64,000 nucleotides of DNA, from the NCBI GenBank assembly GCA_024276275.1, contig JAJRXM010000072.1, forward strand, positions 8,416-72,415, given 5' to 3'. Of the stretch, positions 1,063 to 19,042 are shown piece after piece; within the stretch, counting starts at the first letter, position 1, and the number at the start of each line of letters is the position of its first letter. The position numbers and the translations under genes are program-made. This DNA comes from Candidatus Zixiibacteriota bacterium. GTDB taxonomy: Bacteria > Zixibacteria > MSB-5A5 > GN15 > FEB-12. The notes under the pieces are model-generated. The model was given only the letters and a program-made list of their open reading frames with translations, had not been told where the DNA came from and did not search any database.

Positions 1063-2211
1063 CTACCCACGTTCAAGAAGCATGGCGACACCTTGACCTT
1101 GTCCGACACAAAGTGATGCGATACCATATTTCACGTTTCGTTCTGCCATAGAATGTGCCAAAGTAATCACAATACGAAGACCGGACATTCCAAGCGGATG
1201 TCCCATAGCAACAGCTCCGCCGTGAATGTTTAATTTCTCTGTCGGTATTTTCAGTTCTCTTTGACATGCGATAACTTGTGCAGCAAACGCCTCGTTGATT
1301 TCAAAAAGTCCAATATCGGACATGCTTAAGCCTGTTCTTTGTAAGAGCTTTTTAATTGCATAGACAGGACCTAAACCCATAACGGTCGGGTTAAGCCCAA
1401 TATTAACTACTGCTTTTATTTCTACCAAGTATTGATTGTCAGCTTGTGAAAGATACTCATTACCACATACCATCGCCATAGCGGCACCGTCGGCAATACC
1501 CGAACTATTGGCGGCAGTTATTGTGCCATCTTCTTTGAAAACTGTTTTAAGAGTTGCCAGTTTTTCAAGCGATGAAACACGAGGGTCTTCATCGTTTAAG
1601 ACTTCACTGTTATCAGGGAGAGTTATCGGTACTATTTCATTATCATAAAATTTGTTTTCTTTTGCTTTAAAATATCGCTCGTTACTTTCTATTGTAAATT
1701 TGTCCTGTTCTTCACGAGAGATTTCATATATCTCGGCTAGTTTTTCTGCTGTCAGCCCCATATTTGTCCATTGGAAATCATACTCTGTAAAAAGGTCTTT
1801 GTTATAATCGACCGCGGCTGTCATAGGGACATGCCCCATATGTTCAACGCCTCCGACTAAAACAGCATTGTTACTACCTGATTTTATAGAGTCAAACGCC
1901 ATCTGTAAAGCACTAAAACTTGAAGCACACAAACGGTTGACAGTAGCACCAGGAATAGATTCGGGAAGGCCGGCAAGTAGCAGAATTTGTCGGGCAAGGT
2001 TTTTCCCCTGTTCAAGATGCTGCCCGACACATCCGAGATAAAAATCATCAATTGTTTTATGTCTGATACTAATACGATTCAGCAATGCCGACAGAGTCTG
2101 CACTCCAAGCTGGTCGGCACGCAGGTTTTTATACATCCCTTTTTCGGGGTGTCCGCGACCGATAGGAGAACGGCAACCGTCGATTATAAAAACTGAATTA
2201 TTATTTGGCAT
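1063..2211 (-). CDS. acetyl-CoA C-acyltransferase (thiolase), last gene of the aromatic operon
   Basis: 382 aa; thiolase motifs NRLCASS (active-site Cys), GHPLGMSG, CVGQGQG. Confidence 0.9.
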   Translation of the reverse strand: MPNNNSVFIIDGCRSPIGRGHPEKGMYKNLRADQLGVQTLSALLNRISIRHKTIDDFYLGCVGQHLEQGKNLARQILLLAGLPESIPGATVNRLCASSFSALQMAFDSIKSGSNNAVLVGGVEHMGHVPMTAAVDYNKDLFTEYDFQWTNMGLTAEKLAEIYEISREEQDKFTIESNERYFKAKENKFYDNEIVPITLPDNSEVLNDEDPRVSSLEKLATLKTVFKEDGTITAANSSGIADGAAMAMVCGNEYLSQADNQYLVEIKAVVNIGLNPTVMGLGPVYAIKKLLQRTGLSMSDIGLFEINEAFAAQVIACQRELKIPTEKLNIHGGAVAMGHPLGMSGLRIVITLAHSMAERNVKYGIASLCVGQGQGVAMLLERG

Positions 2212-2221
2212 ATTTTATCTT

Positions 2222-2958
2222 TTAAAAAATTGTTGATCCTATTGAACGACCGCCGTCAACATGTAAAATCTGACCGTTAATAAACTGAGCCTCTTCAGAT
2301 GCTAAAAATGCTACTGCCGATGCGACATCTTCCGGTTCACCAGCTTGTTTTGACGGTTGTTTGTCTAAGAGTTTTTGAAATATCTCTTTTGGTAATGCAT
2401 TGGTCATATCTGTTTTTATAAGTCCCGGAGCAACAGCATTGACCGTTATATTTTTTGGAGCCAGTTCAAGTGCCAAGACTCTGGTCATACTTACAAGCCC
2501 ACCCTTCGAGGCAGAGTAGTTTGACTGCCCCGGATTACCGAGCCACGCTCGGGAGGCAATATTTATTATACGTCCACTTTTTTGTTCTCTCATGATAGGA
2601 GCTACTTCTTTGCAAAGAAGCCAGGAGCCTTTGAGATTTACTTGAATAACATCGTCGAACTGCTCTTCTGTCATTTTCCATATAACATTGTCTTTTATAA
2701 TACCGGCATTGTTTACGAGTATATCAATTTTCTTTTTTTCTTCAATAATCATTGAGATAAAAGCTTGTACATCATCCCGCTTGGAGATATCGCCCTCAAA
2801 ACAGCATAGGAATTTCCCGGATCAATTTTAAAAGATTCAGGTATAGATTTATCAATGATATACACAAAAGTACCGTCTTTAACAAATCGTTTTGTAATTG
2901 CTAGACCTATCCCCCTCATGCCGCCTGTTACAATAGCTATTTTTCCGTCAAATGACAT
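2222..2958 (-). pseudogene. short-chain dehydrogenase/reductase (FabG / 3-hydroxyacyl-CoA dehydrogenase-like) split by a 1-nt frameshift
   Basis: ORF 2749-2958 carries TGGMRGIG; ORF 2222-2752 carries NNAG and YSASK. Adding one base in the A4 run at 2798-2801 rejoins them as ...[19 protein letters not shown]... Confidence 0.8.
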
Positions 2959-2963
2959 TTGAG

Positions 2964-3740
2964 TTAGTTATCCTTCCATTTCGGAGTTCGTCGTTCCAAA
3001 AATGAATTTATACCTTCGTTGGAATCCTGAGTTTCCATCAGTTTATTAATATACATTTTCTCAAGTTCCTGAAGATGTTTCTTAAGCGTTCTGTTAAATG
3101 TTCTTCGGACAGCTTTATTGGCAAATCTCAAAGAAGACGCACTTTTTGGAAGTATGCTTTTAACTACCCAGTTATCAACATCGGTCAGCATAGTTTCTTT
3201 ATCATTTGAAACCGAACAGACAAGTCCGATTTTATATGCAAAATCAACATCTATAATTTTTCCGGTTAAAAGCATATCATCAGCATGCGATTGTCCGAGT
3301 TTCATAGGGAGAATCAATGATGCAGGCGGAGCAAAAACGCCAAGAGATATTTCAGGCTGACCGAATTTTGCCGTTTTATCAGCAAACATAAAGTTGCACA
3401 TCAGGGCAAGTTCTAAACCACCACCTAAACATTGCCCTGAAATCAATGCTGCGGTCGGGATAGATAAATCCATTAGTGTATAAAACAATTGATGAAACTG
3501 TTTCAGCATTTGTGGTGCATTTTCTTTGGTATGTTCAGCGACAGATGCACCAAAACTAAAATGCTTACCTTCACCGATAAACTGAATCAGTTTTATATGC
3601 GGTTGTTCTTTAAAGCTGTCAAGAACCTCTTGCAGTTCGGTCATCATAGCAGCATCGAGAACGTTTCCTTTGGGAGAATTAAGGGTAATTCGCATAACTT
3701 GATTGTCATGCGAATATTCCTGTAATAGTTTTTCAGCCAT
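2964..3740 (-). CDS. dch: crotonase-family enoyl-CoA hydratase, candidate cyclohexa-1,5-diene-1-carbonyl-CoA hydratase
   Basis: 258 aa crotonase fold ([24 protein letters not shown]); sits directly downstream of had and oah/bamA homologues; size matches my recollection of Thauera Dch. Confidence 0.7.
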
Positions 3741-3746
3741 ATAAAC

Positions 3747-4832
3747 CTACTTAGGTAAAATTGCGTTGAGCATTTCATCATCCCATGGATGACCTTCTGA
3801 AAGCATTATACGTAATTTAATGAAATCAATTTCGCGGTTCCCTTTTGGTCCTTCGTTAAATGCGCGGAAGCCTGCTTTTGCTTCAGTCATCATATTTAGT
3901 CCAAGCCAATCACGACTGGTTTGATGATTTTGATTCCAATGCTCTAATTTCTTTTTCCGAAGCGAGTTAAGTGTTTTAGTAATACAACCCGGCATCATGT
4001 ACATCAGTTTTGTAGATAGAGAGTCAACGCATTCATCAAGCGGAGTTAAATCAATCTCGCTGCTTTTGAGTAAATCTTTTCCTGTTCTTAACTCATCACC
4101 GGATTTTGTTTTTCCATAGACAATAGAGCCGGTTTCATCAAGCCATTTGTCTGTAACAACTAAAGGATTACGAACAAACTTACCGTCTACTTTTAAAACA
4201 GGAATAGCGTCTGTAATAAGACCTATTTGTTTTGCTTCGTAAGAAGACCACATTTCACAAAGCGTGCAGCTTTGCATTGCTCTTTCAATACCGACAAACA
4301 GATGCAGAAAATCAGTAGAACCGCCATCCGGTGCGGAACCGTGTTTTGGCCCTGCCTGTCCGAAAACAGCTAAGTCACTTGCAACCGTAAAATCACACGC
4401 CATACCTATTTCCTGTCCACCGGCAATTCGCATTCCGTTTACCCTACAGATAACAGGTTTATCACAGGTGAGAATGGATGTTATCATGTCGTTAAACAAT
4501 CTCATATACTGCATATATTCAATAGGTCGGCCGGTATAATATTCGGCATATTCTTTGGTATTCCCTCCGGTACAAAATGCTCTATCTCCTACAGCGGTAA
4601 AAACTACCGAGACAACCGAACGGTCATTTGATGCTTTGCGAAAAGCCATGATGACTTCTTTGACAGCGGCAGTTGTATATGAATTATATTGTTTCGGATT
4701 ATTTAAATATATCCATGCGTTATAAAGTTTGTCAACCTTATTACCGTTAGTATCCAGACAAGGTTTAAGTTCATACTTAATTTCTTTAAAGTCTATTTCG
4801 ACTATGTCATGATTATGCAGTTCAAAGCTCAT
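3747..4832 (-). CDS. bamA: 6-oxocyclohex-1-ene-1-carbonyl-CoA hydrolase (ring-opening enzyme, BamA/Oah)
   Basis: 361-aa extended crotonase; contains QYNSYTT and GGQEIGMACD, which I recall as the motifs targeted by the standard degenerate bamA marker primers; flanked by had- and dch-like genes. Confidence 0.85.
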   Translation of the reverse strand: MSFELHNHDIVEIDFKEIKYELKPCLDTNGNKVDKLYNAWIYLNNPKQYNSYTTAAVKEVIMAFRKASNDRSVVSVVFTAVGDRAFCTGGNTKEYAEYYTGRPIEYMQYMRLFNDMITSILTCDKPVICRVNGMRIAGGQEIGMACDFTVASDLAVFGQAGPKHGSAPDGGSTDFLHLFVGIERAMQSCTLCEMWSSYEAKQIGLITDAIPVLKVDGKFVRNPLVVTDKWLDETGSIVYGKTKSGDELRTGKDLLKSSEIDLTPLDECVDSLSTKLMYMMPGCITKTLNSLRKKKLEHWNQNHQTSRDWLGLNMMTEAKAGFRAFNEGPKGNREIDFIKLRIMLSEGHPWDDEMLNAILPK

Positions 4833-4864
4833 TATATTATCTCCTTATAATATTGAATTTCAAG

Positions 4865-5932
4865 TTAAAAGTCCGGAGTCAGTACCGAACGTTTTAAAAA
4901 TTTATGTTCTAGTGTATCCTGAAAAATATCATTTATTTTAGACATCGGAAATGTTTGAGTGTACGGTTTTAGTTTTAATTTACCTTCTGCGGTAAGGTTT
5001 ATTACATCGGTGTACAGTTCCGGTTTACATCCCCAAGTACCGATAATCTTACCATCGAATGCCATAAGATTACTAAGACGTACTTCCAGTTTATCGAGAG
5101 TAAATCCGACAATTGATAATGTCGAGGCAATCCCCATGAGTGCGTAACCGAGTTCCTGTCCCGGTTTTGTGCCGGACATTTCATAGATTTTCCATCCAAA
5201 AGGTGAGGCACCCATATCTTTACATTTTGCTTTCACCTGTTTTTTGATTTCTCTAATATCAAGGTCTTTGATATTCAAAGTATTTGTAATTCCTGCATCT
5301 TGTAGTTGGTCAAGTTTATCTTGTGAAATGTCTAGTGCTAAAACATTGCCACCTAAAATTTGTGCAAGCTGGGCTCCATAGATTCCGATTCCGCCGACAC
5401 CGATGATAACACAAAAGTCATCCTGTTTTAATTCGCTTTTTACTATAACCTGATACGGTGTCGAAACAGCATCTGCGATAACAGAGAGTTCGGCTAATGA
5501 ATGATTTTTAAGAGCAGCATCAGGTACGACAGTCAGATATTTAGACGGAACAACAATATGACTTCCAAAACCGCCGTTAAAATCGTTACCGGGCATTTTT
5601 TGCTTTTGGCATATATTACTTCGTCCGCTATTACAGAGAGAACAATCTCCGCACGGAAGAACAGCCGGGATAATAACAGGTTTTCCTTTTAGTTCAGAAG
5701 GTCCTTCCATGACAATTCCACTAATCTCATGCCCTAAGACTAGAGGGAGTTCATGACGGGTAGGAACTCCATAATGCCAAAAACTTAAATCTGTATGGCA
5801 GACACCACATCCGGAAATTTCAATAAGTGCTTCATCCGGTTTAATATCTTCTATTTGATAGACCACCTTTTCAAACGGTTTATCTTTAGCAGTCATTTGA
5901 TATGCTTGTACATCTATCATTGTTACCTCCAT
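4865..5932 (-). CDS. had: Zn-dependent MDR alcohol dehydrogenase, candidate 6-hydroxycyclohex-1-ene-1-carbonyl-CoA dehydrogenase
   Basis: 355 aa; GCGVCHTDL and GHEISG zinc-ADH motifs, CGDCSLC structural-Zn loop; position immediately upstream of bamA/oah. Confidence 0.7.
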   Translation of the reverse strand: MEVTMIDVQAYQMTAKDKPFEKVVYQIEDIKPDEALIEISGCGVCHTDLSFWHYGVPTRHELPLVLGHEISGIVMEGPSELKGKPVIIPAVLPCGDCSLCNSGRSNICQKQKMPGNDFNGGFGSHIVVPSKYLTVVPDAALKNHSLAELSVIADAVSTPYQVIVKSELKQDDFCVIIGVGGIGIYGAQLAQILGGNVLALDISQDKLDQLQDAGITNTLNIKDLDIREIKKQVKAKCKDMGASPFGWKIYEMSGTKPGQELGYALMGIASTLSIVGFTLDKLEVRLSNLMAFDGKIIGTWGCKPELYTDVINLTAEGKLKLKPYTQTFPMSKINDIFQDTLEHKFLKRSVLTPDF

Positions 5933-5950
5933 AATTTCTTTCTTTTACGT

Positions 5951-6709
5951 TTATTTTTCATCACGTGCTATAAGTGCCGCTCCCAAAGCAACAGCCATTT
6001 GCGGTTTTGGGAAAATATCAACTTCTGTATTAAATTCATTTTTCAGTAAGTCTTTTAAATACGGATGGTACGAAATTACACCTCCGCATAAATAAATAGG
6101 GATATCTAATTGCACAGGAAGTTTACAAATTCTGTTGACGATAGAAAGATATATCCCCTTGGCGATATCTTCGGCAGAGACACCGTTAAATTTCCATCCG
6201 AGAATTTCAGTCTTGGCAAAAACGGTGCAGAAACTATTTATCACTTTATCATTTGTTGAGTTTTTAGCTAAGTCATTCATTTCTTGAATTTCAATTTCTG
6301 CTTTGTCAGCAATTTCTGTTATAAAAGTTCCGGTCCCTGCTGAACATTTGTCATTCATCATAAATTCGATAACTTCACCGTTAGGTCCTGACTCGATAAT
6401 TTTGATATCTTCACCGCCTATATCGATAATGCATTTATGAGTAGGGGCAAAAGATGAGACTCCCTTGGCGGCACAAATAAGTTCTGTCTTTTGCAAATCA
6501 CATGCAAAGCTGTTACGTCCGTAGCCAGTCGAGCATGTTTTTGAAATGTTAAATTTGTTATCAATTTCATTTTTAATATCTTGAAATGTCTGACGGTTTC
6601 TGCTTAAGGTTTGAATAGTCTTCTCAAACATTACAGTACCGCTATCATCTACAACAACAAATTTTGTGTATGAGGAACCGAGGTCTATGCCTAAAAAGTG
6701 AGAATCCAT
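5951..6709 (-). CDS. BcrAD/BadFG/HgdC-family ATPase (activator-type, YjiL-like), extra copy
   Basis: 252 aa; GIDLGSSYTKFVVVD, DIGGEDIKII, cluster-bridging Cys motifs NDKCSAGTGTF and SFCTVFAKTE. Confidence 0.85.
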   Translation of the reverse strand: MDSHFLGIDLGSSYTKFVVVDDSGTVMFEKTIQTLSRNRQTFQDIKNEIDNKFNISKTCSTGYGRNSFACDLQKTELICAAKGVSSFAPTHKCIIDIGGEDIKIIESGPNGEVIEFMMNDKCSAGTGTFITEIADKAEIEIQEMNDLAKNSTNDKVINSFCTVFAKTEILGWKFNGVSAEDIAKGIYLSIVNRICKLPVQLDIPIYLCGGVISYHPYLKDLLKNEFNTEVDIFPKPQMAVALGAALIARDEK

Positions 6710-6732
6710 AATAGTTTAAAATAATATTCGTA

Positions 6733-7680
6733 TTATTTTTCCTGTAAATGTTCCAGTAAATGAACCAACGCCGTAACAGACTGATTGAGAGGTGTCGGTA
6801 AATAATGTTTTCTGCCATAATCAACAATCTTACCGTTTAGTTGGTCGATTTCAGTTCGGTTTCCATTTTCTAAATCAACAAGCATTGACGGTCTGTGATG
6901 TCCGGCGTTTTTTAAATATCTAATTGAGTATCTTCTGAATTTCTTCCCTAAATCAATTTTTTCTTTTTCGGCAATAACAACTGATTCGTCAATAATCCCT
7001 TCCACCAAATCAAGTGTCAACGGAAAGTCCATAACCTCTTTCATCGTTTTACGAGTAATTGCACAAACAGCACTCAGCGATGCATTTAATATCGCTTTTT
7101 GCCAGACATGATCAATAATATCCTCAGGTATCTCAGTTGTTAAGTCAACGGAATTCAGCATATCATTTATTTGTTTGGCTATCGCTTCTCCCTGTGGCAT
7201 TAAAGCAGCAAGATAGTTAGGTGGATTAAAGAAACTTACATGTACAATATTTTCAGAGATATTACCGGCGTAATTTATAACCATACGAAGAGTCTTTTGA
7301 TCTCCAAACTCTCTTGCAACAACTACTTCATTATCAATGCCGTTTTGTGCGACCATAACAAACATTTTTTCTGTTGAAATTTCTTTGAGCTGTGAAACAA
7401 CCTTTTCAAGTACCGGAGTTTTTACCGCAAGAATAACTAAATCGAGGTCGTACATTTCAAGTTCCTGAATTGAAAAACAAACTTCTGAAACTTGAACATT
7501 TTTTTCAAATTTAAATTGTAATGTTATCCCCTTTTTTTTAATTATATCCATTTTTTGATGTACTAAATCGCAAAGAACTACATAGGCTCCCGCCTCTATG
7601 AGATGCGCACCTAAGACAGCTCCGACCGGTCCCATTCCAACAACGCCGATACGCAAATTATTATTTTCATTCCCAGACAT
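6733..7680 (-). CDS. 2-dehydropantoate 2-reductase (PanE/ApbA) family oxidoreductase
   Basis: 315 aa; N-terminal Rossmann IGVVGMGPVGAVLGAHL; family-typical length and C-terminal helical domain. Confidence 0.75.
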   Translation of the reverse strand: MSGNENNNLRIGVVGMGPVGAVLGAHLIEAGAYVVLCDLVHQKMDIIKKKGITLQFKFEKNVQVSEVCFSIQELEMYDLDLVILAVKTPVLEKVVSQLKEISTEKMFVMVAQNGIDNEVVVAREFGDQKTLRMVINYAGNISENIVHVSFFNPPNYLAALMPQGEAIAKQINDMLNSVDLTTEIPEDIIDHVWQKAILNASLSAVCAITRKTMKEVMDFPLTLDLVEGIIDESVVIAEKEKIDLGKKFRRYSIRYLKNAGHHRPSMLVDLENGNRTEIDQLNGKIVDYGRKHYLPTPLNQSVTALVHLLEHLQEK

Positions 7681-7693
7681 TATATATCCTTAT

Positions 7694-8899
7694 TTATACT
7701 GATATTCTTTTTTTTGATTTTAGTTGTTCCAGAAAAGTCTCAAGTTTTGTTTGAGTTTGTCCGTCGGAGAAAAACCGCAAGTCATTCAAGTCACCATCGA
7801 TTGTTAATGTATCAATTCGGGTTGAATCTTTTAATCGTTTGGGTAGTCCAAATCTGTTGTTACTATTGTTAAAACAGGTTTTGGCATCATGAAAAATAAT
7901 ACCGTCTATATCAAAGTCGTTTAACATTTTTTCCATATAAGCCAGCTTGGTATTTTCACCCCGATTGATAAATATCTTTGTATATGCCGATGCCATTGAC
8001 TCCAATGGATTTTTCGGATTAAAATCATCAAATATCCAGCTATTACAATATGTCGAGGCAACCACCACAGAATTATTATCATTAAAGAACTGTGCCATCG
8101 ACCGTAATCTTCCCCAAATCGGCATACCTTCCCAGTAGAGCCTGAGTTGGTTTGAATCTTCTTGTTGTGTTTTTGCAAGTTCTTCTAATTCACTCAAAGT
8201 TTCTTTGTAAAAATCAACACAAATTTTTGTACCTCGCAGCATTACTATAGGTGCCATAAGAATCGTTCCGTCAAAAAATGAAAGCGGAGACGGTTTTTTT
8301 CGAGCTGTATCCAACACCTGTTTCCAAAGCTGAGTACCTTCATAACTTAAAGCTACAACTTTTTCTAGTTCATGAGGGTCGAGTTTTTTCCCGAGAACAT
8401 TTTCCCCGACAGAAATAACTTCTTTAAACTGAGCAACAACATTATCAATGTCTGACTTTGATACATCTTCTAAATATCTCGGAGGATAAATTCCGACAAC
8501 AGGGCAGTTAAATTCCCGTCCGTAAAAATTAAACCATTCGGCAACCTCTCTGCATTGGTTCGTATTAAAAACTATCATATCCGGTTTGGGAATTGATTTG
8601 AGTCCATAAGCATTGGTAAGTGGGGTTTCTTTCATTAGCCAGGCACCGATATCCGCTGTCAGATATGAACAAATTTCTCCTGAAAATCCTGCCCGATGGG
8701 CTTTCGGTATATATTTACCGGCAAGACGAGTAGCACCTAGCATGGCACCATGGTTCTCGGGAAAATAAACCTCGAAGCCTAAGGCTCTAAGAATTTCAGC
8801 AGGACCTGCTGATGTACACCATGCAACAGGAGCCTTCATTCCAACAAAATAATTTTCGAGAATTATTTTTAATTTTTTTTGTGCTTCTAATTGTGCCAT
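7694..8899 (-). CDS. 2-hydroxyacyl-CoA dehydratase / BcrC-BadD-HgdB (HGD-D) family protein, single extra subunit (YjiM-like)
   Basis: 401 aa; family pattern PVAWCTSAGPAEILRALG, CSYLTADIG, C-terminal DGIIFHDAKTC ... DGDLNDLR. Confidence 0.8.
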   Translation of the reverse strand: MAQLEAQKKLKIILENYFVGMKAPVAWCTSAGPAEILRALGFEVYFPENHGAMLGATRLAGKYIPKAHRAGFSGEICSYLTADIGAWLMKETPLTNAYGLKSIPKPDMIVFNTNQCREVAEWFNFYGREFNCPVVGIYPPRYLEDVSKSDIDNVVAQFKEVISVGENVLGKKLDPHELEKVVALSYEGTQLWKQVLDTARKKPSPLSFFDGTILMAPIVMLRGTKICVDFYKETLSELEELAKTQQEDSNQLRLYWEGMPIWGRLRSMAQFFNDNNSVVVASTYCNSWIFDDFNPKNPLESMASAYTKIFINRGENTKLAYMEKMLNDFDIDGIIFHDAKTCFNNSNNRFGLPKRLKDSTRIDTLTIDGDLNDLRFFSDGQTQTKLETFLEQLKSKKRISV

Positions 8900-8902
8900 T
8901 TT

Positions 8903-10627
8903 TTACTCTACATCAATCATATATACTTTATCACCGTCGATTATATCATCACGATCACCGTATAAATAATTTATATTCGCTTCAAATGCTTTTGCAACAG
9001 CATTCGGTGCAAGTTTCATCGACGGGGTCAGTTCTTCTTTTTCTATTGACAGTTCATAATCTAACAGCATAGCTTTTTTAACATGAGCATATTTTGCTTC
9101 AAGAGAATCATTCATCTTTTTTACACATTTACCGAGACACTTCGCAAATTCCTCACATCCTTTTGGAGAATCACAACCTTCTTTAATATCAGATAAATTT
9201 GATTTACCGGATAACAACTGTTTGTTCGGAAACAACAAGATAACCGGGTGGTCACAACCTGCTCCCGCTACAAAGGCATGCGATAAAAACGGACAATCTT
9301 TTACCATCAAGTTTTCTATTTCTGTCGGAACTACTTTTTCGGCATTACTTAATTTAAAAATACGATCTTTTCTTGCAATTAGTCTTAATCCTGTTTCTTC
9401 AAATTCGCCGACATCACCGGTATAGAACCAGCCGTCATCTTTCAAAACTTTCTGAGTTTCTTCTATGTTATTAAAATAACCCTTCATAACATTAGGACCT
9501 TTGACCATTATTTCATCTTCATCCGACAATACCAGAGAAACACCTGTTATCGGTTTACCGACTATACTCTGTTTACGTAAAACATTCGGGTCTGTAACAG
9601 TGCAGCATGGGGAAGTTTCGGTAAGTCCCCATCCCTCATAAATAGGGATATTACGTTTTTCAAAAGTATCAGAAATATTTTTGGGAAGAGGAGCTGCGGC
9701 TGTAAAAATAAACCGAAGGTCTTTATGAAAAAATTGTTTTTCAATCTCTTGGTTTTGCATACAACAGGTCATAATTTCCTGATAGATTTTTGGTACCGAA
9801 AAGAATGTAGTCGGTTTCACTTTATTCCAGTTTTCTAACAAGAGGTCGATATTTTTACCAAAGCTATGCTCCAATGACAGCACAGCACCATTTACGATAG
9901 CAGAATACTTTTCATATATCCCACCGAAACTGTGATGCCATGGCAGATATGATAAAAACCGGTCGTCAGAATTTAAGCTCCATAAAGATTTCATCGCTGC
10001 CTGTTGCGAAAGGATATTATCATGTGTCAGCATAACACATTTCGGTTTTCCCATTGTTCCGGAAGTGTACATCATAAGTGATAGAGAGTCGGGTGCGACC
10101 TGCTCCCCTTGAATGTCATATGATGCGGGTGATGTTTCTAATAATGATTTAAATGAAACACAATTAGCATTTTGGTTATTATCTATTTCATCAAAATGTA
10201 TTATTCTGTCAAAATCTTTTGGGGATTCTAGTTTTTGAAACTGGTTATTGTCAGAGACAACTACAAATTTAGGTTCGCAAAACCTGACTAATCTATTTGT
10301 CTGTTCCGCAGGATAGCCCGGGAAAATCGGAATGTATACTGCTCCCATAGACATTACGGCTAATTCAAGTAATAACATCTCTTCTCTGTTTCGAGAACTT
10401 ATCGCAAGATGGTCTCCTTTGCCAAACCCTAAATCTTGTAGTGAAGATTGAATAGCGGAGATTTTTTTTTGTAATTGATACCAAGAAAGAGGAACATATT
10501 TATTATCCCTAACTTCCTGATAAACAGGTTTATCGGAAAACTGTTCCGCATTATGATTAAGCATTAAAGACAAATTATTATGATAAAACGGAAGTTCTCC
10601 AGCCCCATGTCTTACCTTGTCACTCAT
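8903..10627 (-). CDS. AMP-forming acyl-CoA synthetase (long-chain/FAA1-type ligase)
   Basis: 574 aa; MYTSGTMGKPKCVMLTH, YEGWGLTETS, WFYTGDVG ... RKDRIFKLSNAEKV. Confidence 0.85.
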   Translation of the reverse strand: MSDKVRHGAGELPFYHNNLSLMLNHNAEQFSDKPVYQEVRDNKYVPLSWYQLQKKISAIQSSLQDLGFGKGDHLAISSRNREEMLLLELAVMSMGAVYIPIFPGYPAEQTNRLVRFCEPKFVVVSDNNQFQKLESPKDFDRIIHFDEIDNNQNANCVSFKSLLETSPASYDIQGEQVAPDSLSLMMYTSGTMGKPKCVMLTHDNILSQQAAMKSLWSLNSDDRFLSYLPWHHSFGGIYEKYSAIVNGAVLSLEHSFGKNIDLLLENWNKVKPTTFFSVPKIYQEIMTCCMQNQEIEKQFFHKDLRFIFTAAAPLPKNISDTFEKRNIPIYEGWGLTETSPCCTVTDPNVLRKQSIVGKPITGVSLVLSDEDEIMVKGPNVMKGYFNNIEETQKVLKDDGWFYTGDVGEFEETGLRLIARKDRIFKLSNAEKVVPTEIENLMVKDCPFLSHAFVAGAGCDHPVILLFPNKQLLSGKSNLSDIKEGCDSPKGCEEFAKCLGKCVKKMNDSLEAKYAHVKKAMLLDYELSIEKEELTPSMKLAPNAVAKAFEANINYLYGDRDDIIDGDKVYMIDVE

Positions 10628-11445
10628 TGAGCAACCTCAAGCAGTTTATAATGCCTGTATCCACCCCATAGTGCGGCACCGATAGCACCGTTGGCATAAC
10701 AATTTTTCGTAGCGAAAATTTCTAAACTCAGATTACGCTCGTCAGCAAGTTGTTTGATAACTTCGACCAAACCGACATCCTGTGACATCCCACCTGACAA
10801 AGCAACAGGAGATTCAACTTTTAATTTACTTAAGAGACTTACAATCCGCCGAGCAATCGACTCATGGATACCTTTGATAATATCTGAGGTCGCAATGCCT
10901 TGTGAAACCATATTTATAACATCGGTTTCGGCAAGTACCGCACAGATACCGCTCAGCTTGGCAGGTTCTTTTGATTCCAAAGAAAGAGGTCCTACTTCGT
11001 CTATTGTAACGCCAAGATAACGGGTGATATTTTCCAAAAATTGACCGGATCCCGAGGCACATTGACCTGTCATCGCATAATTTTTAACCCGTGAACCTGA
11101 TTCCAAAGACATCACTCTGCAAAACAAAGCACCCATATCTACTACGGTTTTTGTCTCGGGATGGAAATGAAAAGCACCCTTTGCGTGGGTTGTCATTGAA
11201 TAAAAATGCCCTCGTTTACGTTCTACAAGTTCACCTTCACCAGTAGATGCAACATAAAGGAGTTCTTCATATTTTAAATTATGTCGTTCTAACAAATCAT
11301 TGACTGCTTTATTTATGAGTATAGTCGGATTTCTTTTTCTGATTTTTTCATTAGTAATTTCAATAATTTTCGGATTGTCGCTGTATTCTATTAATGCTAT
11401 TTTTATAAAGCTACTGCCGACATCTATTCCAAGGGTATATTCCAT
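10624..11445 (-). CDS. bcrD: benzoyl-CoA reductase ATPase subunit (delta, BcrD/BadG-like)
   Basis: GIDVGSSFIKIALIE, TGQCASGSGQFL, SGICAVLAETD. ORF track starts at 11481, but the ATG at 11445 has a GGAGG RBS and follows the bcrA stop. Confidence 0.8.
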   Translation of the reverse strand: MEYTLGIDVGSSFIKIALIEYSDNPKIIEITNEKIRKRNPTILINKAVNDLLERHNLKYEELLYVASTGEGELVERKRGHFYSMTTHAKGAFHFHPETKTVVDMGALFCRVMSLESGSRVKNYAMTGQCASGSGQFLENITRYLGVTIDEVGPLSLESKEPAKLSGICAVLAETDVINMVSQGIATSDIIKGIHESIARRIVSLLSKLKVESPVALSGGMSQDVGLVEVIKQLADERNLSLEIFATKNCYANGAIGAALWGGYRHYKLLEVAQ

Positions 11446-11449
11446 TTGT

Positions 11450-12742
11450 CTATTTCCTCCGTGAACTAAAGAGAGCCGCACCGAGAGCTCCCATAAAGAT
11501 TGAATCGGTGTGACAATTGATTTTTATTTTACCGTAATTTTGTTCAACCATCTGTGATACATATTTCACAACTGCCTGATTACGGGCAACACCGCCGGTA
11601 AATGTAAATTCATTTCGGACACCGCCTGAACGTGCTAACAAAGCAAATGCTCTTTGCACTATAGCTTTATGTAAGCCGGCTAAAACATTTTCTTTTTTCT
11701 CACCTAAATTAAGGTACTCGCGAAGTTCAGCCCCGGCAAACACTGTACAGGTAGAACATATATTTGCTTCATAATCGGCGTTCATAGCAAGAGGTCCTAA
11801 TTCACCGACCGAAATACTCATTTCATCGGCGATATATCCCAAATACCTTCCGCACCCCGCAGCACATCTATCATTCATTTGAAAGCTGGTAACTAATCCG
11901 TACTTGTCAACCTGAATTGCTTTTGTGTCCTGTCCGCCTATATCTAAAACAGTTCTTGTACCCGGAAAAACAGCATGAGCACCCATCGCATGACAGAGGA
12001 TTTCTGACTTGATATGTTTTTCTTCAAACGGAAGTAACTGCCGTCCATAACCTGTTCCGATATAGTCGGTCGGTTCTAACGAAAGCAATTCAACTTCATC
12101 TAAATTTTTTCTAAAATCAGTATCTTCCTGAAACGATTTTTCAGGAAGCAATTCTATTGCTTCTTCTGCTAACTGAGCAAAATCAAAATTGAGTTTTTCA
12201 TTTTCAACAGGCGTAATAGAACGGTCATACAGAGCGACCAGTTGGTCGTAATAACTTTTATCTTCATCTTGTATAGCTTGCATATAACCTGTGGAAAAAA
12301 TATCACGGAAAAAATCGGATGATAACGAAATTGCTCCATTCAAAAATTTTTCTTCAACATCAATAAGCATATCATCTTGAATTTTTTTCAGGAGCGTTGT
12401 TACTTTTCCAGAAAGTTCTTTGTTTTCTAATAGAGCTGCATTTTCAAACATTACTTCAATCAGACGATAAAACCGATACCGATACTGCAAGTAGTGAAAA
12501 CGGTTCTCGAGTTGACTTATAATGTCACCCCAATCAAAAGAACCGTTAGAGTCGGTTTTAAGTCTTCTGTGTAAGAGAGTAAAGCGTGAATTAAACTCTG
12601 CCTCGTTCTGAGCAATCTGAGCAGCAACTTCATAGTTGGAGCGGGTGTTCGTAATCCCACGACCAATGATATGTCCGTCTTTATCAACGATAACTGCTTT
12701 AGATGTTGTCGAACCTAAATCTATACCAAGGAAAACGTTCAT
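11450..12742 (-). CDS. bcrA: benzoyl-CoA reductase ATPase subunit (alpha, BcrA/BadF-like)
   Basis: 430 aa; GIDLGSTTSKAVIVD, DIGGQDTKAI, NDRCAAGCGRYL, STCTVFAGAE; long insertion after the first phosphate-binding motif, as in alpha subunits. Confidence 0.8.
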   Translation of the reverse strand: MNVFLGIDLGSTTSKAVIVDKDGHIIGRGITNTRSNYEVAAQIAQNEAEFNSRFTLLHRRLKTDSNGSFDWGDIISQLENRFHYLQYRYRFYRLIEVMFENAALLENKELSGKVTTLLKKIQDDMLIDVEEKFLNGAISLSSDFFRDIFSTGYMQAIQDEDKSYYDQLVALYDRSITPVENEKLNFDFAQLAEEAIELLPEKSFQEDTDFRKNLDEVELLSLEPTDYIGTGYGRQLLPFEEKHIKSEILCHAMGAHAVFPGTRTVLDIGGQDTKAIQVDKYGLVTSFQMNDRCAAGCGRYLGYIADEMSISVGELGPLAMNADYEANICSTCTVFAGAELREYLNLGEKKENVLAGLHKAIVQRAFALLARSGGVRNEFTFTGGVARNQAVVKYVSQMVEQNYGKIKINCHTDSIFMGALGAALFSSRRK

Positions 12743-12775
12743 TTATTTCCTCATTTAACTTATTGTTATGTTCTC

Positions 12776-14080
12776 TTATGTTAATACATCATCCGGTACA
12801 ATATCATCACCGATATTAAATGACTGTCGTTGGTCAAGCATCTGAAAAAATGAATCTAAACGGTTTTTAATATTTGAATACGAATAATAGCGAGGATCAA
12901 CCAAATCAGTTTCAATAAACCCGACCGGTATTTCAAGCCGTTCTTCTAAATCCCGCATCATAACCAATTGCCCTGCGGAAAAAGAGTTACAGCTTTTAAT
13001 TGAATTCACTAAAAATCCGTTGGCTTTATATTTTGTTATAAATGATTCTATCAAGTCTATACGCTGAGGGATATTTCGGTTCGTATAACAACCCAGACAA
13101 TACTCCGCCATACTTTTTATTGAGTCGTTTGAACTATGTCTGAACCCGTCATCATATACGCCACCTACTCTTGTATATGTAGAGCCGACAAAAACTGCTC
13201 CCATATCATAGAACAGTTTCCAAAAACCTCTAAAATGAGTCCAGTTTGGAGGACCTTCTACAACAAGACGGAATTTTTCTTCCTTCATGTATCCTTCAGG
13301 CGTTATCGGCCCAAGTTTATTGGCAACACGATAATTAACTTCTTTTAAAAGCTCTTGATAATACTCAAGACAATCTTCACTTCCGCGGAATGCGGTAAAA
13401 ATCGGTCCGATGTAATAAACTCCTCCGAAGTATGCATCAATAGGAGAAGGAGTGTTCTCCGCAGAGTCAAAAATTTCAATTAATAGTTCTTCAGCTTTTG
13501 CTGAAAGGTCCATCTTTTCGCCAAGTTTATCGTTATCAAATTTTTGACCGCTAACTTTTTCAAAAGTTGGAATAACTTCATTAATAAGCTGGTCTTTAAT
13601 ATATTTTACGGCGTTTGCTTCTATTTTTCCCGACTCCTGATAAGGAATATGAAGCATGGCTATTTCGGCATTTGGATACAGTTGTTTTAAATTTTCAAAC
13701 CATTTCATAAAGACAAAACAACCGGTGTAACTCAATAAAAGAATATCAGGATTGGGAAGCTGTTGACCGGTAGGTCCTATATTTCCCTGAAGCATCATTC
13801 CGATATCACATTTTACGTAGGAACAGACATCTTCTGAGTATCCCATATCTTCCGCTTCCTGGATATACTCTTTCGATTTCTGACGCATCCCCGACTGCAG
13901 AGAATTAATTTCGGGATAAACAGGAAGCATATCAAAAGCATAAATCAACTCTGTAAGGTTTCCCGGTACAAACGTATATACAACTTTCTTCCCTGTTTCT
14001 TTTACTTGGGATAATTCAATAAACTGTTCAGCAAGCATATGCTTCTGTTTAATCATACTATTTTCTTTTTGAATATCCAT
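12776..14080 (-). CDS. bcrB: benzoyl-CoA reductase subunit (beta, BcrB/BadE-like; HGD-D family)
   Basis: 434 aa HGD-D family protein directly between the bcrC-like and bcrA-like genes; conserved Cys context CSYVKCDIG. Confidence 0.8.
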   Translation of the reverse strand: MDIQKENSMIKQKHMLAEQFIELSQVKETGKKVVYTFVPGNLTELIYAFDMLPVYPEINSLQSGMRQKSKEYIQEAEDMGYSEDVCSYVKCDIGMMLQGNIGPTGQQLPNPDILLLSYTGCFVFMKWFENLKQLYPNAEIAMLHIPYQESGKIEANAVKYIKDQLINEVIPTFEKVSGQKFDNDKLGEKMDLSAKAEELLIEIFDSAENTPSPIDAYFGGVYYIGPIFTAFRGSEDCLEYYQELLKEVNYRVANKLGPITPEGYMKEEKFRLVVEGPPNWTHFRGFWKLFYDMGAVFVGSTYTRVGGVYDDGFRHSSNDSIKSMAEYCLGCYTNRNIPQRIDLIESFITKYKANGFLVNSIKSCNSFSAGQLVMMRDLEERLEIPVGFIETDLVDPRYYSYSNIKNRLDSFFQMLDQRQSFNIGDDIVPDDVLT

Positions 14081-14083
14081 AGT

Positions 14084-15307
14084 CTACTCCCAAAGCTTTA
14101 TCATATCGGCGAAAGTGCCGGCTTGTTCTTTAATAACATGAAACTGCCCGAGATTTTCGTGGTATTGAAAGTTTGAATGTTTTATGTGGTGTCTATCCAT
14201 AGCTTTTTCAAGCAATGGTCTGTCTAATAAGGCAGGGTCGCAGAAACTTGGGGCACAAAAAATAACACCGTCTGCCTTGAGTTCTTTCACTCTGTTTGCC
14301 AAGAGATCACCTTTTGGTTTGTCACCCTCATACACAGCCGATGAATAAGTGCTGTCATTGAGATAACTATCAACCAAAGAACCGATAGGGTCATCTGTTT
14401 TATAATTAATATCTTTAGAGTGCCATCTATGGCCAAGTTGAAAATCATCTTCAACAATATAACATCCGGCATTCTCAATCGTTTTTATCAGTCCGATAGG
14501 AGGTTGTTCACAAAAAGAACCTGAAACAACAACTCGAATTTTATCTTCTTTTTCAAAATTACTATCTTGTAAAAGAGGTAGAAGTTTTTTGAGATAATCA
14601 TTATGGTCTTCAACCGACATAACATTTCCTGCCCGCTGTACTAAGTAAAAGTCAACTGCAGGTATTTTATAAGGGTCTGTATTCCGAATTAATTCAAGTT
14701 CCTGCATCAATCTTCTGTTTTCATTATATAAAACAATTGATGCGTTCAGCTTTTCGGGAGTAACTTTAATTCCGTTCATTTTTTCAAAATCTGTTATTAA
14801 TCTTTCAAGTTCTGAACGATAAAAGACACCGCCGATTGACTCTTCAAAATTTTGAGGAAAATCAAGATAGCGAACAAACTTATCTTTTATTTTAAGTTGA
14901 AAAATACCGGAGAGATTTCTGATAACATCACAAATAGACGGAAATATAAACCCGTCAAAATCATCAAAATTACCGTTTAAGACAAGTTCAATTACGGTGC
15001 GAGGAAGATGGCAGATATAAGATTGAAAATATGCATCCCCCTTGATGACCGGAATACGGTCACCTGCCCCAAAAATTCCTACCGGAAGCATTCCGGCTGC
15101 GTGGATTATTTCTTTGGGGATATAAATCGGCAAAAAACCTATTATTTTTCGAGACTCACCTTTTTTTTTCCATTCACCCGGATATGAAAAACTCAGATCT
15201 TCAAATAGTTCTCTTGCCGTTTTTATTGTTTCTAAATAACTCGTATTTCCCACGGAGTCCTTTCCAGTCAACAATACCGATGTCAAAACGAACCATAATA
15301 GATTCAA
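14084..15307 (-). CDS. bcrC: benzoyl-CoA reductase subunit (gamma, BcrC/BadD-like; HGD-D family)
   Basis: HGD-D family (IGFLPIYIPKEIIHAAGMLPVG, CDVIRN, FCDPALLD). ORF-track start is a TTG at 15307; the GTG at 15253 behind GGAAAGGA looks more plausible (about 389 aa). Confidence 0.8.
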   Translation of the reverse strand: MNLLWFVLTSVLLTGKDSVGNTSYLETIKTARELFEDLSFSYPGEWKKKGESRKIIGFLPIYIPKEIIHAAGMLPVGIFGAGDRIPVIKGDAYFQSYICHLPRTVIELVLNGNFDDFDGFIFPSICDVIRNLSGIFQLKIKDKFVRYLDFPQNFEESIGGVFYRSELERLITDFEKMNGIKVTPEKLNASIVLYNENRRLMQELELIRNTDPYKIPAVDFYLVQRAGNVMSVEDHNDYLKKLLPLLQDSNFEKEDKIRVVVSGSFCEQPPIGLIKTIENAGCYIVEDDFQLGHRWHSKDINYKTDDPIGSLVDSYLNDSTYSSAVYEGDKPKGDLLANRVKELKADGVIFCAPSFCDPALLDRPLLEKAMDRHHIKHSNFQYHENLGQFHVIKEQAGTFADMIKLWE

Positions 15308-15466
15308 ATAATCAGCATTAAATCAATTATTCACGTACTATATTAACGATAAATAATATATCAGAACGGACAGCAAAGCAAGAGGTTTCGCTCTTTTTTA
15401 TGTCATATTGTTTACTAATTTGTATACATTTATCATAGGTAAATCTATTACCTATTCCATTTATAA

Positions 15467-18976: not shown

Positions 18977-19013
18977 TGACAGACCTCAAAATCGAGACCT
19001 GACCTGCAAAACT
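18977..19013. repeat. 37-bp direct repeat, copy 1 (tgacagacctcaaaatcgagacctgacctgcaaaact)
   Basis: Exact match to 20778-20814, same orientation; lies between the BNR gene terminator and the aromatic operon. Confidence 0.9.
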
Positions 19014-19014
19014 T

Positions 19015-19042
19015 AAAAGCTCCATTTTTCAATGGAGCTTTT
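19015..19042 (-). terminator. bidirectional hairpin terminator downstream of the BNR propeller gene
   Basis: Perfect 12-bp stem aaaagctccatt / aatggagctttt, loop tttc, with A and T runs built into the stem ends. Confidence 0.7.

Follow-up and report, generated by a model that had tools for sequence, protein, structure and literature searches.

Why does a benzoyl-coenzyme A (CoA) operon carry four genes for a radical-enzyme system that stands apart from the benzoyl-CoA pathway? The question is raised by a 64,000-nucleotide (nt) stretch of a Candidatus Zixiibacteriota genome (GCA_024276275.1, contig JAJRXM010000072.1, positions 8,416–72,415), here called the window. Four open reading frames (ORFs) lie on its minus strand between bcrD and had, and Pfam and NCBIfam profiles confirmed the positions and families given for them in a first-pass annotation. 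They encode an AMP-forming acyl-CoA synthetase of 574 amino acids (LIG, 8903–10627; AMP-binding PF00501, 245 bits, with AMP-binding_C_3 PF23562), a lone HGD-D family protein of 401 amino acids (HGDD, 7694–8899; PF06050, 197 bits), a PanE-like oxidoreductase of 315 amino acids (6733–7680; ApbA PF02558 and ApbA_C PF08546; TIGR00745, 170.8 bits against a cut-off of 141) and an HgdC/HadI-type activase, or archerase, of 252 amino acids (ACT, 5951–6709; BcrAD_BadFG PF01869, 140 bits; TIGR00241, 193.8 bits against 125). By analogy with the Fld and Had systems, the four genes probably form a module that converts a 2-oxo acid to a 2-enoyl-CoA using different parts. The full aromatic version, in which arylpyruvates become cinnamoyl-type CoA esters that enter the benzoyl-CoA pathway, is more tentative, and we place it slightly short of an even chance.

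The genes flanking the block belong to a real benzoyl-CoA pathway, with BcrB, BcrC, had and oah above curated equivalog cut-offs. Directly upstream is a Thauera-type class I benzoyl-CoA reductase (BCR), bcrC-bcrB-bcrA-bcrD (10624–15307, minus strand). BcrB (624 bits, cut-off 487) and BcrC (447 bits, cut-off 421) pass their NCBIfam thresholds; BcrA (445 bits) and BcrD (10624–11481, minus strand; 268 bits) have the corresponding models as best matches, below cut-off. Directly downstream are the genes for ring-modifying and ring-opening enzymes (2964–5932, minus strand), namely had (4865–5932; TIGR03201, 423 bits, cut-off 339), oah (3747–4832; TIGR03200, 568 bits, cut-off 464) and dch (2964–3740; TIGR03189, 234 bits, best match, below cut-off). 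The 4-nt overlap of bcrD with LIG and the short gaps of 3, 13, 23 and 18 nt from LIG to had point to a single transcription unit.

A scan of one genome per species yielded 583 stretches with HGDD relatives. The best 80 of these (53–82% identity) were compared with up to 10 kb of flank per side, and presence was counted only in loci with enough sequence on the relevant side. The 80 loci come from Zixibacteria, Marinimicrobia/Fidelibacterota, Acidobacteriota, KSB1, Eisenbacteria, Lentisphaeria, Ignavibacteria and Bacteroidota (Chitinophagaceae, Saprospiraceae and Flavobacteriales), with a few metagenome-assembled genomes (MAGs) labelled Proteobacteria. The closest species representative is a Zixibacteria MAG (L001), 79–91% identical across the operon. 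The block holds the same operon position in nearly all 80 sampled genomes, with the recurring order bcrC-B-A-D, LIG, HGDD, PanE, ACT, (thiolase), had, oah, dch, (FadB-like), SDR (short-chain dehydrogenase/reductase) and thiolase. The PanE-like gene is the most constant neighbour of HGDD, directly following it in 76 of 78 loci. ACT is present in 67 of 75 loci, LIG directly upstream of HGDD in 59 of 72, bcrD in 63 of 69, had in 52 of 63 and oah in 50 of 60. Only one of the 80 loci (L052) has HGDD in an unrelated setting. Most loci carry a Thauera-type Bcr upstream of the block, two (L038 and L048) carry a genuine Bzd-type reductase (BzdO, 677 bits, cut-off 449; BzdN, 502 bits, cut-off 454), and three from Marinimicrobia/Fidelibacterota (L002, L004 and L005) carry a third, divergent class I BCR-like type that scores below all cut-offs. 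Block sequence and position are unchanged whichever type lies upstream. Because the four genes stay together and in place over about 80 genomes, the data support the view, already taken in the first-pass annotation, that they behave as one functional module distinct from the canonical benzoyl-CoA pathway.

All ORFs in the 80 loci were clustered de novo, and the neighbour families were then annotated. PanE and ACT are fused as one polypeptide of about 615 amino acids (ApbA, ApbA_C and BcrAD_BadFG) in 23 loci. LIG is replaced in situ in at least 13 loci, of Bzd type and of Bcr type, by a non-orthologous ADP-forming acyl-CoA synthetase of 690–712 amino acids (CoA_binding, Succ_CoA_lig and ATP-grasp_5 domains), so the conserved trait is the step from acid to CoA ester. 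In 8 loci two PanE paralogues flank a gene for a HisC-type class I/II aminotransferase (hisC model, 305 bits, cut-off 277), and in 2 loci HGDD adjoins a Na:solute symporter gene. About 26 loci have a Mo enzyme of the xanthine dehydrogenase (XDH) family after the block, with XdhC and MobA; its large subunit scores 811 bits with the 4-hydroxybenzoyl-CoA reductase alpha model (HcrA) versus 524 bits with XdhA, below the HcrA cut-off of 995. No second HGD-D gene, CoA-transferase or second AMP-ligase was found among the neighbour families of the 80 loci.

The module also occurs without BCR. An exhaustive search of 50%-identity representatives returned 1351 HGDD relatives, 191 of them at E ≤ 1e-30, and the closest include PanE-HGDD fusion proteins (P0121, with 728 amino acids and 52% identity; P0128; P0144). 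In a Myxococcota MAG (L082, 10001–18157), a 728-amino-acid PanE-HGDD fusion gene and ACT are directly followed by a complete Mo-enzyme set (2Fe-2S, FAD and MoCo subunits, XdhC and a MobA-like protein). No bcr, ligase, had or oah gene lies within 10 kb there, so the triad of PanE, HGDD and ACT is linked to the Mo enzyme independently of BCR. L084 (47% identical to HGDD) encodes PanE, an acyl-CoA dehydrogenase, HGDD, ACT and an AMP-binding_C_3 ligase that is 40% identical to LIG over 563 amino acids, with no bcr context. L083 (52% by phmmer, 48.8% by BLASTP) encodes HGDD, ACT and an ADP-forming synthetase 41% identical to those of bcr loci. L087 (42%) has PanE-HGDD-ACT, and L085 (41%) has HGDD and ACT. 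Because these near-clade loci keep it without bcr, the conserved core consists of PanE, HGDD and ACT, in most cases plus a CoA-activating enzyme, and the module predates its association with BCR. The PanE-activase and PanE-HGDD fusions tie the three proteins together.

HGDD is a member of the HGD-D superfamily of BCR and 2-hydroxyacyl-CoA dehydratases (HAD), with a PF06050 score far above the cut-off of 28 bits. Its NCBIfam scores all fall below cut-offs: 210 bits with HadB (cut-off 750), 142 with BcrB (487), 73 with BzdO (449) and 57 with the double_cubane model. Among solved structures, HadB is the best match by sequence (E = 9e-45), followed by MbdO and BzdO. The AlphaFold2 model (mean predicted local distance difference test, pLDDT, 88; predicted template modelling score, pTM, 0.89) has a two-domain alpha/beta fold. 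It matches HadB, MbdO, BzdO and the double-cubane cluster protein (DCCP) at probability 1.0, with Foldseek template modelling (TM) scores of 0.89 for HadB, 0.84–0.85 for MbdO and BzdO, and 0.69–0.73 for HadC, BzdN and DCCP. A rough neighbour-joining tree, rooted on the N, beta and DCCP types and only indicative given its long branches and lack of support values, places the HGDD clade as sister to the HadB, BcrB and BzdO clades together and nested in none. A phylogeny had been called for in the first-pass annotation; HadB proves closest by sequence and fold, but HGDD forms a separate clade and is not nested among the known dehydratases. By sequence, HGDD is a catalytic (alpha/B/O-type; HadB/BzdO-type) subunit in its own deep clade. 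Because that clade is sister to dehydratase and reductase subunits together, homology does not establish HGDD chemistry.

Five cysteines are invariant in 79 family members (C28, C77, C116, C285 and C342). The cluster-binding set, whose loss would have spoken against the first-pass proposal, is intact: C77, C116 and C342 align with the three [4Fe-4S]-OH2 ligands of HadB and BzdO (C95, C128 and C380 of BzdO). C28 (motif A-W-C-x-S) and C285 (Y-C-N-S-W) align with second-cubane [8Fe-9S] ligands of BzdN and YjiM, and the third second-cubane position (PACPS in BzdN, GCSC in YjiM) is an invariant F-I-N-R-x-E in HGDD, which leaves Cys at five of the six double-cubane ligand positions. C116 and C285 are spaced by 168 residues, within the X166-170 of the published DCCP motif (C4–C5). 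The published DCCP classification recognises only catalytic subunits with three Cys and DCCPs with seven. Only members of the HGDD clade, to as little as about 41% identity, carry the C28/C285 signature; position 285 is Thr or Pro in ordinary relatives of the catalytic type. HGDD keeps W27, equivalent to the BzdO Trp46 that fills the space of the lost cubane, and a conserved Glu (E48). It has Val119, as does HadB, where BzdO has the catalytic His131, which forms the BzdO acid-base pair with Glu65. No beta-type HGD-D gene lies beside HGDD in the neighbourhoods of the 80 loci, so HGDD is probably a homodimer, and we propose that it is an ATP-activated ketyl-radical enzyme. In two of the PanE-HGD-D fusions, P0128 and P0144 (L088, 4477–6783), all three canonical cluster Cys are replaced (by Ser, Gly and Ser/Thr), and these HGD-D domains are apparently cluster-less.

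The first-pass annotation had likened HGDD and ACT to the YjiM/YjiL pairs, and the gene layout bears this out. As in DCCP with its reductase (DCCP-R) and in Escherichia coli YjiM/YjiL, a single HGD-D gene is paired with a single archerase gene, and the HGD-D protein is a probable homodimer. The likeness does not extend to sequence, fold or Cys pattern. YjiM scores 531 bits with the double-cubane model (NF040772, cut-off 350) and HGDD 57 bits; the two are 20% identical by BLASTP (E = 3e-4) and 16% over the trimmed alignment. YjiM groups with the N, beta and C-type subunits, whereas HGDD groups with the catalytic type, and DCCPs have no PanE or ligase partner. Profile score, pairwise identity, subunit type and fold ranking, together with the absent sixth Cys, led us to reject HGDD as a member of the YjiM/DCCP group.

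The partner proteins point to 2-oxo acid and CoA ester chemistry. In the numbering of E. coli ketopantoate reductase (KPR), the PanE-like residues G7, G9, G12, K72, N98, K176, E210, S244, D248 and E256 are invariant in 82 of 82 sequences, fusions included. N180 is kept in 76 of the 82, and Arg31, which binds the NADPH 2'-phosphate, is lost. The TIGR00745 score, the GxGxxG motif and Lys176, Glu256, Asn98 and Ser244 place the protein in the KPR family. Among its PDB matches, two Enterococcus proteins (2EW2 and 3WFI) rank above E. coli KPR. The name "PanE" was a mis-annotation in Enterococcus and Lactococcus, where these proteins act as NADH-dependent D-2-hydroxyacid dehydrogenases. The earlier suggestion of a 2-oxo acid reductase agrees with these residues and relatives. 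The PanE-like protein is probably an NADH-dependent D-2-hydroxyacid dehydrogenase that is physically associated with HGDD and the activase.

ACT is of the homodimeric type, with PDB matches to HadI (2e-42), DCCP-R (6e-38) and HgdC (8e-38). Its cluster Cys C122 and C161 are invariant and are common to YjiL and BcrD. We propose a homodimer with a bridging [4Fe-4S] cluster that would inject electrons into HGDD at the cost of ATP. Both the PanE-like protein and ACT look catalytically competent. LIG is of the long-chain/FadD11-like type, and all its NCBIfam matches are below cut-off; the best are long-chain/FadD-type and generic acyl-CoA synthetases, with no benzoate-CoA ligase model among them. 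It does not classify with the BadA/BclA/BzdA-type benzoate-CoA ligases, and its orthologues accompany HGDD-clade genes with no bcr in view. The ligase thus belongs to the module and not to BCR, since it travels with the HGDD clade outside bcr operons, and it is proposed to make the CoA thioester of the acid substrate of the module.

The nearest parallel is the aryl-lactate dehydratase system of Clostridium sporogenes (fldH; fldL-A-I-B-C; acdA-etfAB), whose substrates are the 2-oxo and 2-hydroxy acids formed from the aromatic amino acids Phe, Tyr and Trp. The block appears to fill the same roles: reduction of a 2-oxo acid, ligation of an acid to CoA, ATP-dependent activation, and catalysis by an HGD-D subunit with a three-Cys [4Fe-4S] site. 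The PanE-like protein corresponds to FldH/LdhA, LIG or the ADP-forming synthetase to FldL, ACT to FldI/HadI and HGDD to FldB/HadB. FldL is a precedent for a ligase in a dehydratase cluster, and in the block a ligase or ADP-forming synthetase stands in place of a CoA-transferase. Unlike the Fld system, the block has no CoA-transferase (FldA), no second subunit (FldC) and no acdA or etfAB. Its reductase belongs with PanE/KPR and not with FldH, and HGDD differs by its two additional invariant Cys and its separate clade. The enoyl-CoA would presumably be oxidised towards benzoyl-CoA, not reduced.

The clostridial LdhA/HadA/HadI/HadBC system is a functional analogue of the proposed module, and HadBC and HadI of Clostridioides difficile (PDB 3O3M and 4EHT) are the closest solved relatives of HGDD and the activase. 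HadB shares with HGDD the Cys triad, Trp27 and Val119; it differs in its low identity (about 27–29%), in Ser and Pro at the positions of C28 and C285, and in its need for HadC, whereas HGDD has no beta partner in the 80 loci. BcrB, BzdO and MbdO (PDB 8S02 and 9G87) share with HGDD the superfamily, the fold, a [4Fe-4S]-OH2-type Cys triad, the Glu E48, the Trp and the same operon. HGDD is only 23–25% identical to them, lacks its own N-type double-cubane partner and has an activase of homodimeric type.

In the proposed mechanism, the PanE-like enzyme would reduce a 2-oxo acid with NADH to an (R)-2-hydroxy acid, and LIG, or an ADP-forming synthetase in other genomes, would convert this to the 2-hydroxyacyl-CoA in an ATP-dependent step. 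These two steps may run in reverse order; PanE and HGDD would then act one after the other, in keeping with the fusions. The activase would use ATP to inject one electron into HGDD, and ketyl-radical chemistry on its [4Fe-4S] cluster would eliminate water to yield an (E)-2-enoyl-CoA. In benzoyl-CoA operons the likely substrates would be phenylpyruvate (from Phe) and 4-hydroxyphenylpyruvate (from Tyr), giving cinnamoyl-CoA and 4-coumaroyl-CoA. One round of beta-oxidation would then release benzoyl-CoA or 4-hydroxybenzoyl-CoA plus acetyl-CoA, to be taken over by the class I reductase, together with the HcrA-like Mo enzyme where present. We infer each catalytic activity, substrate and oligomeric state in this scheme from the observed gene content, conservation, fusions and conserved residues.

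To our knowledge, each 2-hydroxyacyl-CoA dehydratase described so far receives its substrate from a D-2-hydroxyacid dehydrogenase of its own. That the PanE-like gene is near-universal in the loci and occasionally fused is therefore the strongest pointer to 2-oxo/2-hydroxy acid chemistry. The HisC-type aminotransferase between PanE paralogues fits a sequence from amino acid to 2-oxo acid to 2-hydroxy acid, and a 4-hydroxylated substrate derived from Tyr would suit the HcrA-like Mo enzyme, found in about 26 loci and also in L082. As far as we know, the block is absent from the well-studied BCR organisms. The block is nearly always beside BCR and BCR is not dependent on the block, which is the pattern of a peripheral, funnelling module. 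This asymmetric dependence, the HisC-type aminotransferase, the HcrA-like Mo enzyme and the occasional symporter together suggest aromatic substrates. The route by dehydration from phenylpyruvate to benzoyl-CoA, put forward from the window sequence, has gained comparative support from gene context; its chemistry and its aromatic substrate stay conditional.

Several observations weigh against a Fld/Had-like dehydratase module or its aromatic version. No beta subunit and no CoA-transferase is encoded in the 80 neighbourhoods, and all characterised dehydratase systems that we know of have both. HGDD is not nested in the known dehydratases and is only 29% identical to HadB, and its two extra invariant Cys at double-cubane ligand positions suggest a cofactor or active site unlike that of HadB. 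A dehydrogenase-activase fusion is unexpected for an enzyme that is merely sequential in a pathway. An aminotransferase accompanies the block in just 8 of the 80 loci, four loci on short contigs (L083, L084, L085 and L087) have the module but no visible aromatic genes, and we infer the aromatic substrate from gene context.

The beta-oxidation genes do not help to decide. At the head of the window operon are genes for a divergent thiolase (17553–18761, minus strand; weak thiolase Pfam matches) and a divergent FadB-like dehydrogenase-crotonase fusion (15701–17566, minus strand; weak enoyl-CoA hydratase (ECH) Pfam matches), both much as first described. The fusion is 21.6% identical over 481 amino acids to a protein of family F13 from related loci that combines 3-hydroxyacyl-CoA dehydrogenase (3HCDH) and ECH domains. 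The pair had been read as support for cinnamoyl-CoA beta-oxidation, and this was not upheld: of the 80 loci, only L001 shares the pair with the window in that position, and the lower pathway explains the beta-oxidation genes of the other loci. The two thiolases, the FadB-like protein and the SDR are ordinary lower-pathway needs, so beta-oxidation genes are not specific for cinnamoyl-CoA and were rejected as evidence for it. The head-of-operon pair are candidates for side-chain beta-oxidation or for lower-pathway oxidation of crotonyl-CoA.

A further reading of the Fld/Had-like module, which we regard as rather doubtful, is that the HGDD clade is a third functional lineage of the BCR/HAD superfamily, homodimeric and in complex with PanE and an archerase, in an oxidative route from Phe and Tyr to benzoyl-CoA. 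The two ancestral second-cubane ligands kept in HGDD might then support a double-cubane-like cluster that is asymmetric and has an open iron site, or serve as two catalytic thiols in the substrate pocket. Such a route, through aryl-lactyl-CoA and cinnamoyl- or coumaroyl-CoA, may extend to at least the 80 species sampled, and probably to several hundred, among Zixibacteria, Marinimicrobia, Bacteroidota, Ignavibacteria and others, and would supply the dehydratase that the literature leaves unassigned.

An unlikely alternative keeps the same module chemistry and gives it a non-aromatic substrate, for example 2-oxoglutarate, converted via (R)-2-hydroxyglutaryl-CoA to glutaconyl-CoA, or a branched-chain 2-oxo acid. 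The link with BCR would then reflect shared downstream enzymes, with entry at the level of glutaconyl- or crotonyl-CoA. The four loci without visible aromatic genes speak for it, one of them (L084) with the module next to an acyl-CoA dehydrogenase gene, and so do an acyl-CoA dehydrogenase gene that abuts the window operon (2–484) and the fact that the closest characterised relative of HGDD, HadB, acts on an aliphatic substrate. Glutaconyl-CoA is moreover a lower-pathway intermediate in strict anaerobes (PMC13416013). A non-aromatic substrate leaves unexplained, however, the fixed position between bcrD and had over three reductase types and many phyla, and it gives no role to the HcrA-like Mo enzyme, the sole companion of the triad in L082. 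No glutaconyl-CoA decarboxylase was found among the conserved neighbour families, and the co-located aminotransferase is of the HisC type and not of the glutamate or branched-chain type. The HisC-type family includes aromatic aminotransferases.

Equally improbable in our estimate is a second alternative, in which PanE, HGDD and the activase form a new three-component ATP-driven reductase, functionally akin to BCR or DCCP, and not a dehydratase. The ligase would make an aryl-CoA or another CoA ester, which HGDD would either reduce at low potential by one or two electrons or dehydroxylate reductively; the carbonyl so formed would be reduced by the PanE domain with NAD(P)H. Benzoates with hydroxyl or other substituents could enter in this way. 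The Cys kept at five of six double-cubane positions and the C116-X168-C285 spacing that matches C4–C5 of DCCP are consistent with such a reductase, as are the basal place of the HGDD clade among catalytic subunits, nearest the DCCP/N-type root, and the strict co-occurrence with BCR. Fusion of PanE to HGDD or to the activase implies a tight complex instead of a free pathway enzyme. In L082 the triad lies beside the 4-hydroxybenzoyl-CoA-reductase-like Mo enzyme and nothing else aromatic, an arrangement that fits a Tyr-derived route equally. The retained Trp27, by contrast, argues against a full double cubane, HGDD has no equivalent of BzdO His131, and the activase is of the short homodimeric HadI/HgdC type, not a BCR-type heterodimer. 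Storage of two electrons is not obvious for a catalytic subunit with a single [4Fe-4S] cluster. The Ser for binding a free carboxylate is likewise retained in the PanE-like protein, whose closest characterised relatives reduce 2-oxo acids.

More improbable still is that the ligase is simply the benzoate or 4-hydroxybenzoate-CoA ligase of the pathway and that the other three genes are a hitch-hiking cassette or a maintenance or repair system for the oxygen-sensitive reductase. No other CoA ligase is encoded within 10 kb on either side in any locus, the operon would otherwise lack a ligase for benzoate, and LIG abuts bcrD with its 4-nt overlap; yet orthologous ligases of both types accompany HGDD-clade genes without bcr, no benzoate-CoA ligase model is among the best matches, a hitch-hiking cassette is not expected to hold its position over phyla and reductase types at 53–86% identity, and characterised BCR organisms, as far as is known, manage without such a repair system.

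Two further roles were rejected. The triad is not needed as electron donor to BCR because Bzd-type loci carry their own ferredoxin, KorAB-like 2-oxoacid:ferredoxin oxidoreductase and Fe-S flavoprotein, and yet keep the triad; KPR-type enzymes, which transfer hydrides and have no flavin to split electron pairs, also count against a donor role. Alpha-oxidation of phenylacetyl-CoA by a Mo hydroxylase, a mandelate-dehydrogenase-like PanE and a 2-oxoacid:ferredoxin oxidoreductase leaves HGDD and the activase without a role.

The remainder of the operon agrees with a lower benzoyl-CoA pathway. Downstream of dch are a frameshifted SDR gene (2222–2955, minus strand), likely for 3-hydroxypimeloyl-CoA dehydrogenase, and at the operon end a thiolase gene (1063–2211, minus strand), likely for 3-oxopimeloyl-CoA thiolase; the SDR-thiolase pair is kept downstream in many loci. 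The SDR gene has a single frameshift near 2810, with its N-terminus starting at 2955 and the remaining 176 amino acids in another frame. Orthologues are intact at 245 amino acids, and the frameshift is either an assembly error or a real pseudogene. The listed start of bcrC (14084–15307, minus strand) is a TTG at 15307; the BcrC model match opens only at residue 29, so the true start is probably further downstream. No ferredoxin and no convincing small ORF was found in the 394-nt gap between bcrC and the FadB-like gene (15307–15701).

A search for sigma54 -24/-12 promoters gave no match for the benzoyl-CoA operon itself. The only perfect consensus, TGGCACAACTATTGC at 20217–20231 (minus strand), lies about 96 nt upstream of a neighbouring BNR/Ycf48-like gene (start 20121), and a sigma54 promoter for the benzoyl-CoA operon was rejected. 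The BNR-like coding region (19138–20515, minus strand) appears as two overlapping ORFs (19138–20121 and 20096–20515) and is followed by a terminator-like hairpin near 19010–19040. Genes for a histidine kinase and a sigma54-dependent response regulator are divergent at 21339–24939 (plus strand).

Other loci show further variation around the block. The third-type reductase of L002 (4002–7924) has BcrC-like (246 bits) and BcrB-like (192 bits) subunits far under the Bcr and Bzd equivalog cut-offs, and in L002, L004 and L005 two short ATPase genes are followed by the same four-gene block at 70% identity. In L038, a small ORF and a gene for an 851-amino-acid Fe-S/GltD-like NAD(P)H oxidoreductase after bzdQ (4377–7245) are a candidate electron-donor set; ferredoxin and KorA/KorB-like oxidoreductase genes beside Mo-cofactor genes (15684–17974) are a second. 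MarR or hemerythrin genes precede bcrC in some loci. Hydantoinase/oxoprolinase A and B genes lie a few genes downstream of HGDD, PanE and the activase in some Bacteroidota loci (L075, 15754–19598; L046, 7899–14357). Members of this family include carboxylases for acetone and for acetophenone, the latter of which forms benzoylacetate.

Class I BCR operons have been studied mainly in a few Proteobacteria. The literature search found no account of the module, of a five-Cys catalytic-type HGD-D class, of PanE-HGD-D or PanE-activase fusions, or of this operon type in these phyla, and nothing relevant on BCR in these phyla or on a homodimeric dehydratase class, in line with the first-pass view that a self-contained operon for such a route had not been described. 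The established anaerobic Phe route of Thauera, Aromatoleum and Desulfobacteraceae leads from phenylpyruvate through phenylacetyl-CoA and phenylglyoxylate to benzoyl-CoA. It shares with the proposed route its start (Phe or phenylpyruvate), its end and the clustering of its genes with those of the benzoyl-CoA pathway. It differs in that it proceeds by alpha-oxidation with loss of a side-chain carbon as CO2 and uses no HGD-D enzyme, activase or PanE-like reductase, whereas the proposed route would have aryl-lactyl-CoA and cinnamoyl-CoA as intermediates and retain the two side-chain carbons in acetyl-CoA. A 2026 paper postulates a sequence from phenylpyruvate through phenyllactyl-CoA and cinnamoyl-CoA to benzoyl-CoA, with "a yet unassigned dehydratase".

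The window thus represents a widely distributed operon type that carries an extra, apparently uncharacterised four-gene radical-enzyme module. If the module does convert arylpyruvates to cinnamoyl-type CoA esters, it would constitute a new anaerobic route for aromatic amino acids in which the side chain is conserved as acetyl-CoA and Mo-dependent alpha-oxidation of phenylacetyl-CoA is avoided. It would fill the explicitly postulated dehydratase step and would provide a function for a large, abundant group of uncultured bacteria that degrade protein in sediments, oxygen-minimum zones and wastewater. Whatever the substrate, HGDD is a lone catalytic-type subunit with five invariant Cys, placed between the three-Cys enzymes and the double-cubane proteins. 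Fused to a PanE-like dehydrogenase in various lineages, it may inform how BCR and HAD enzymes evolved from DCCP-like ancestors.

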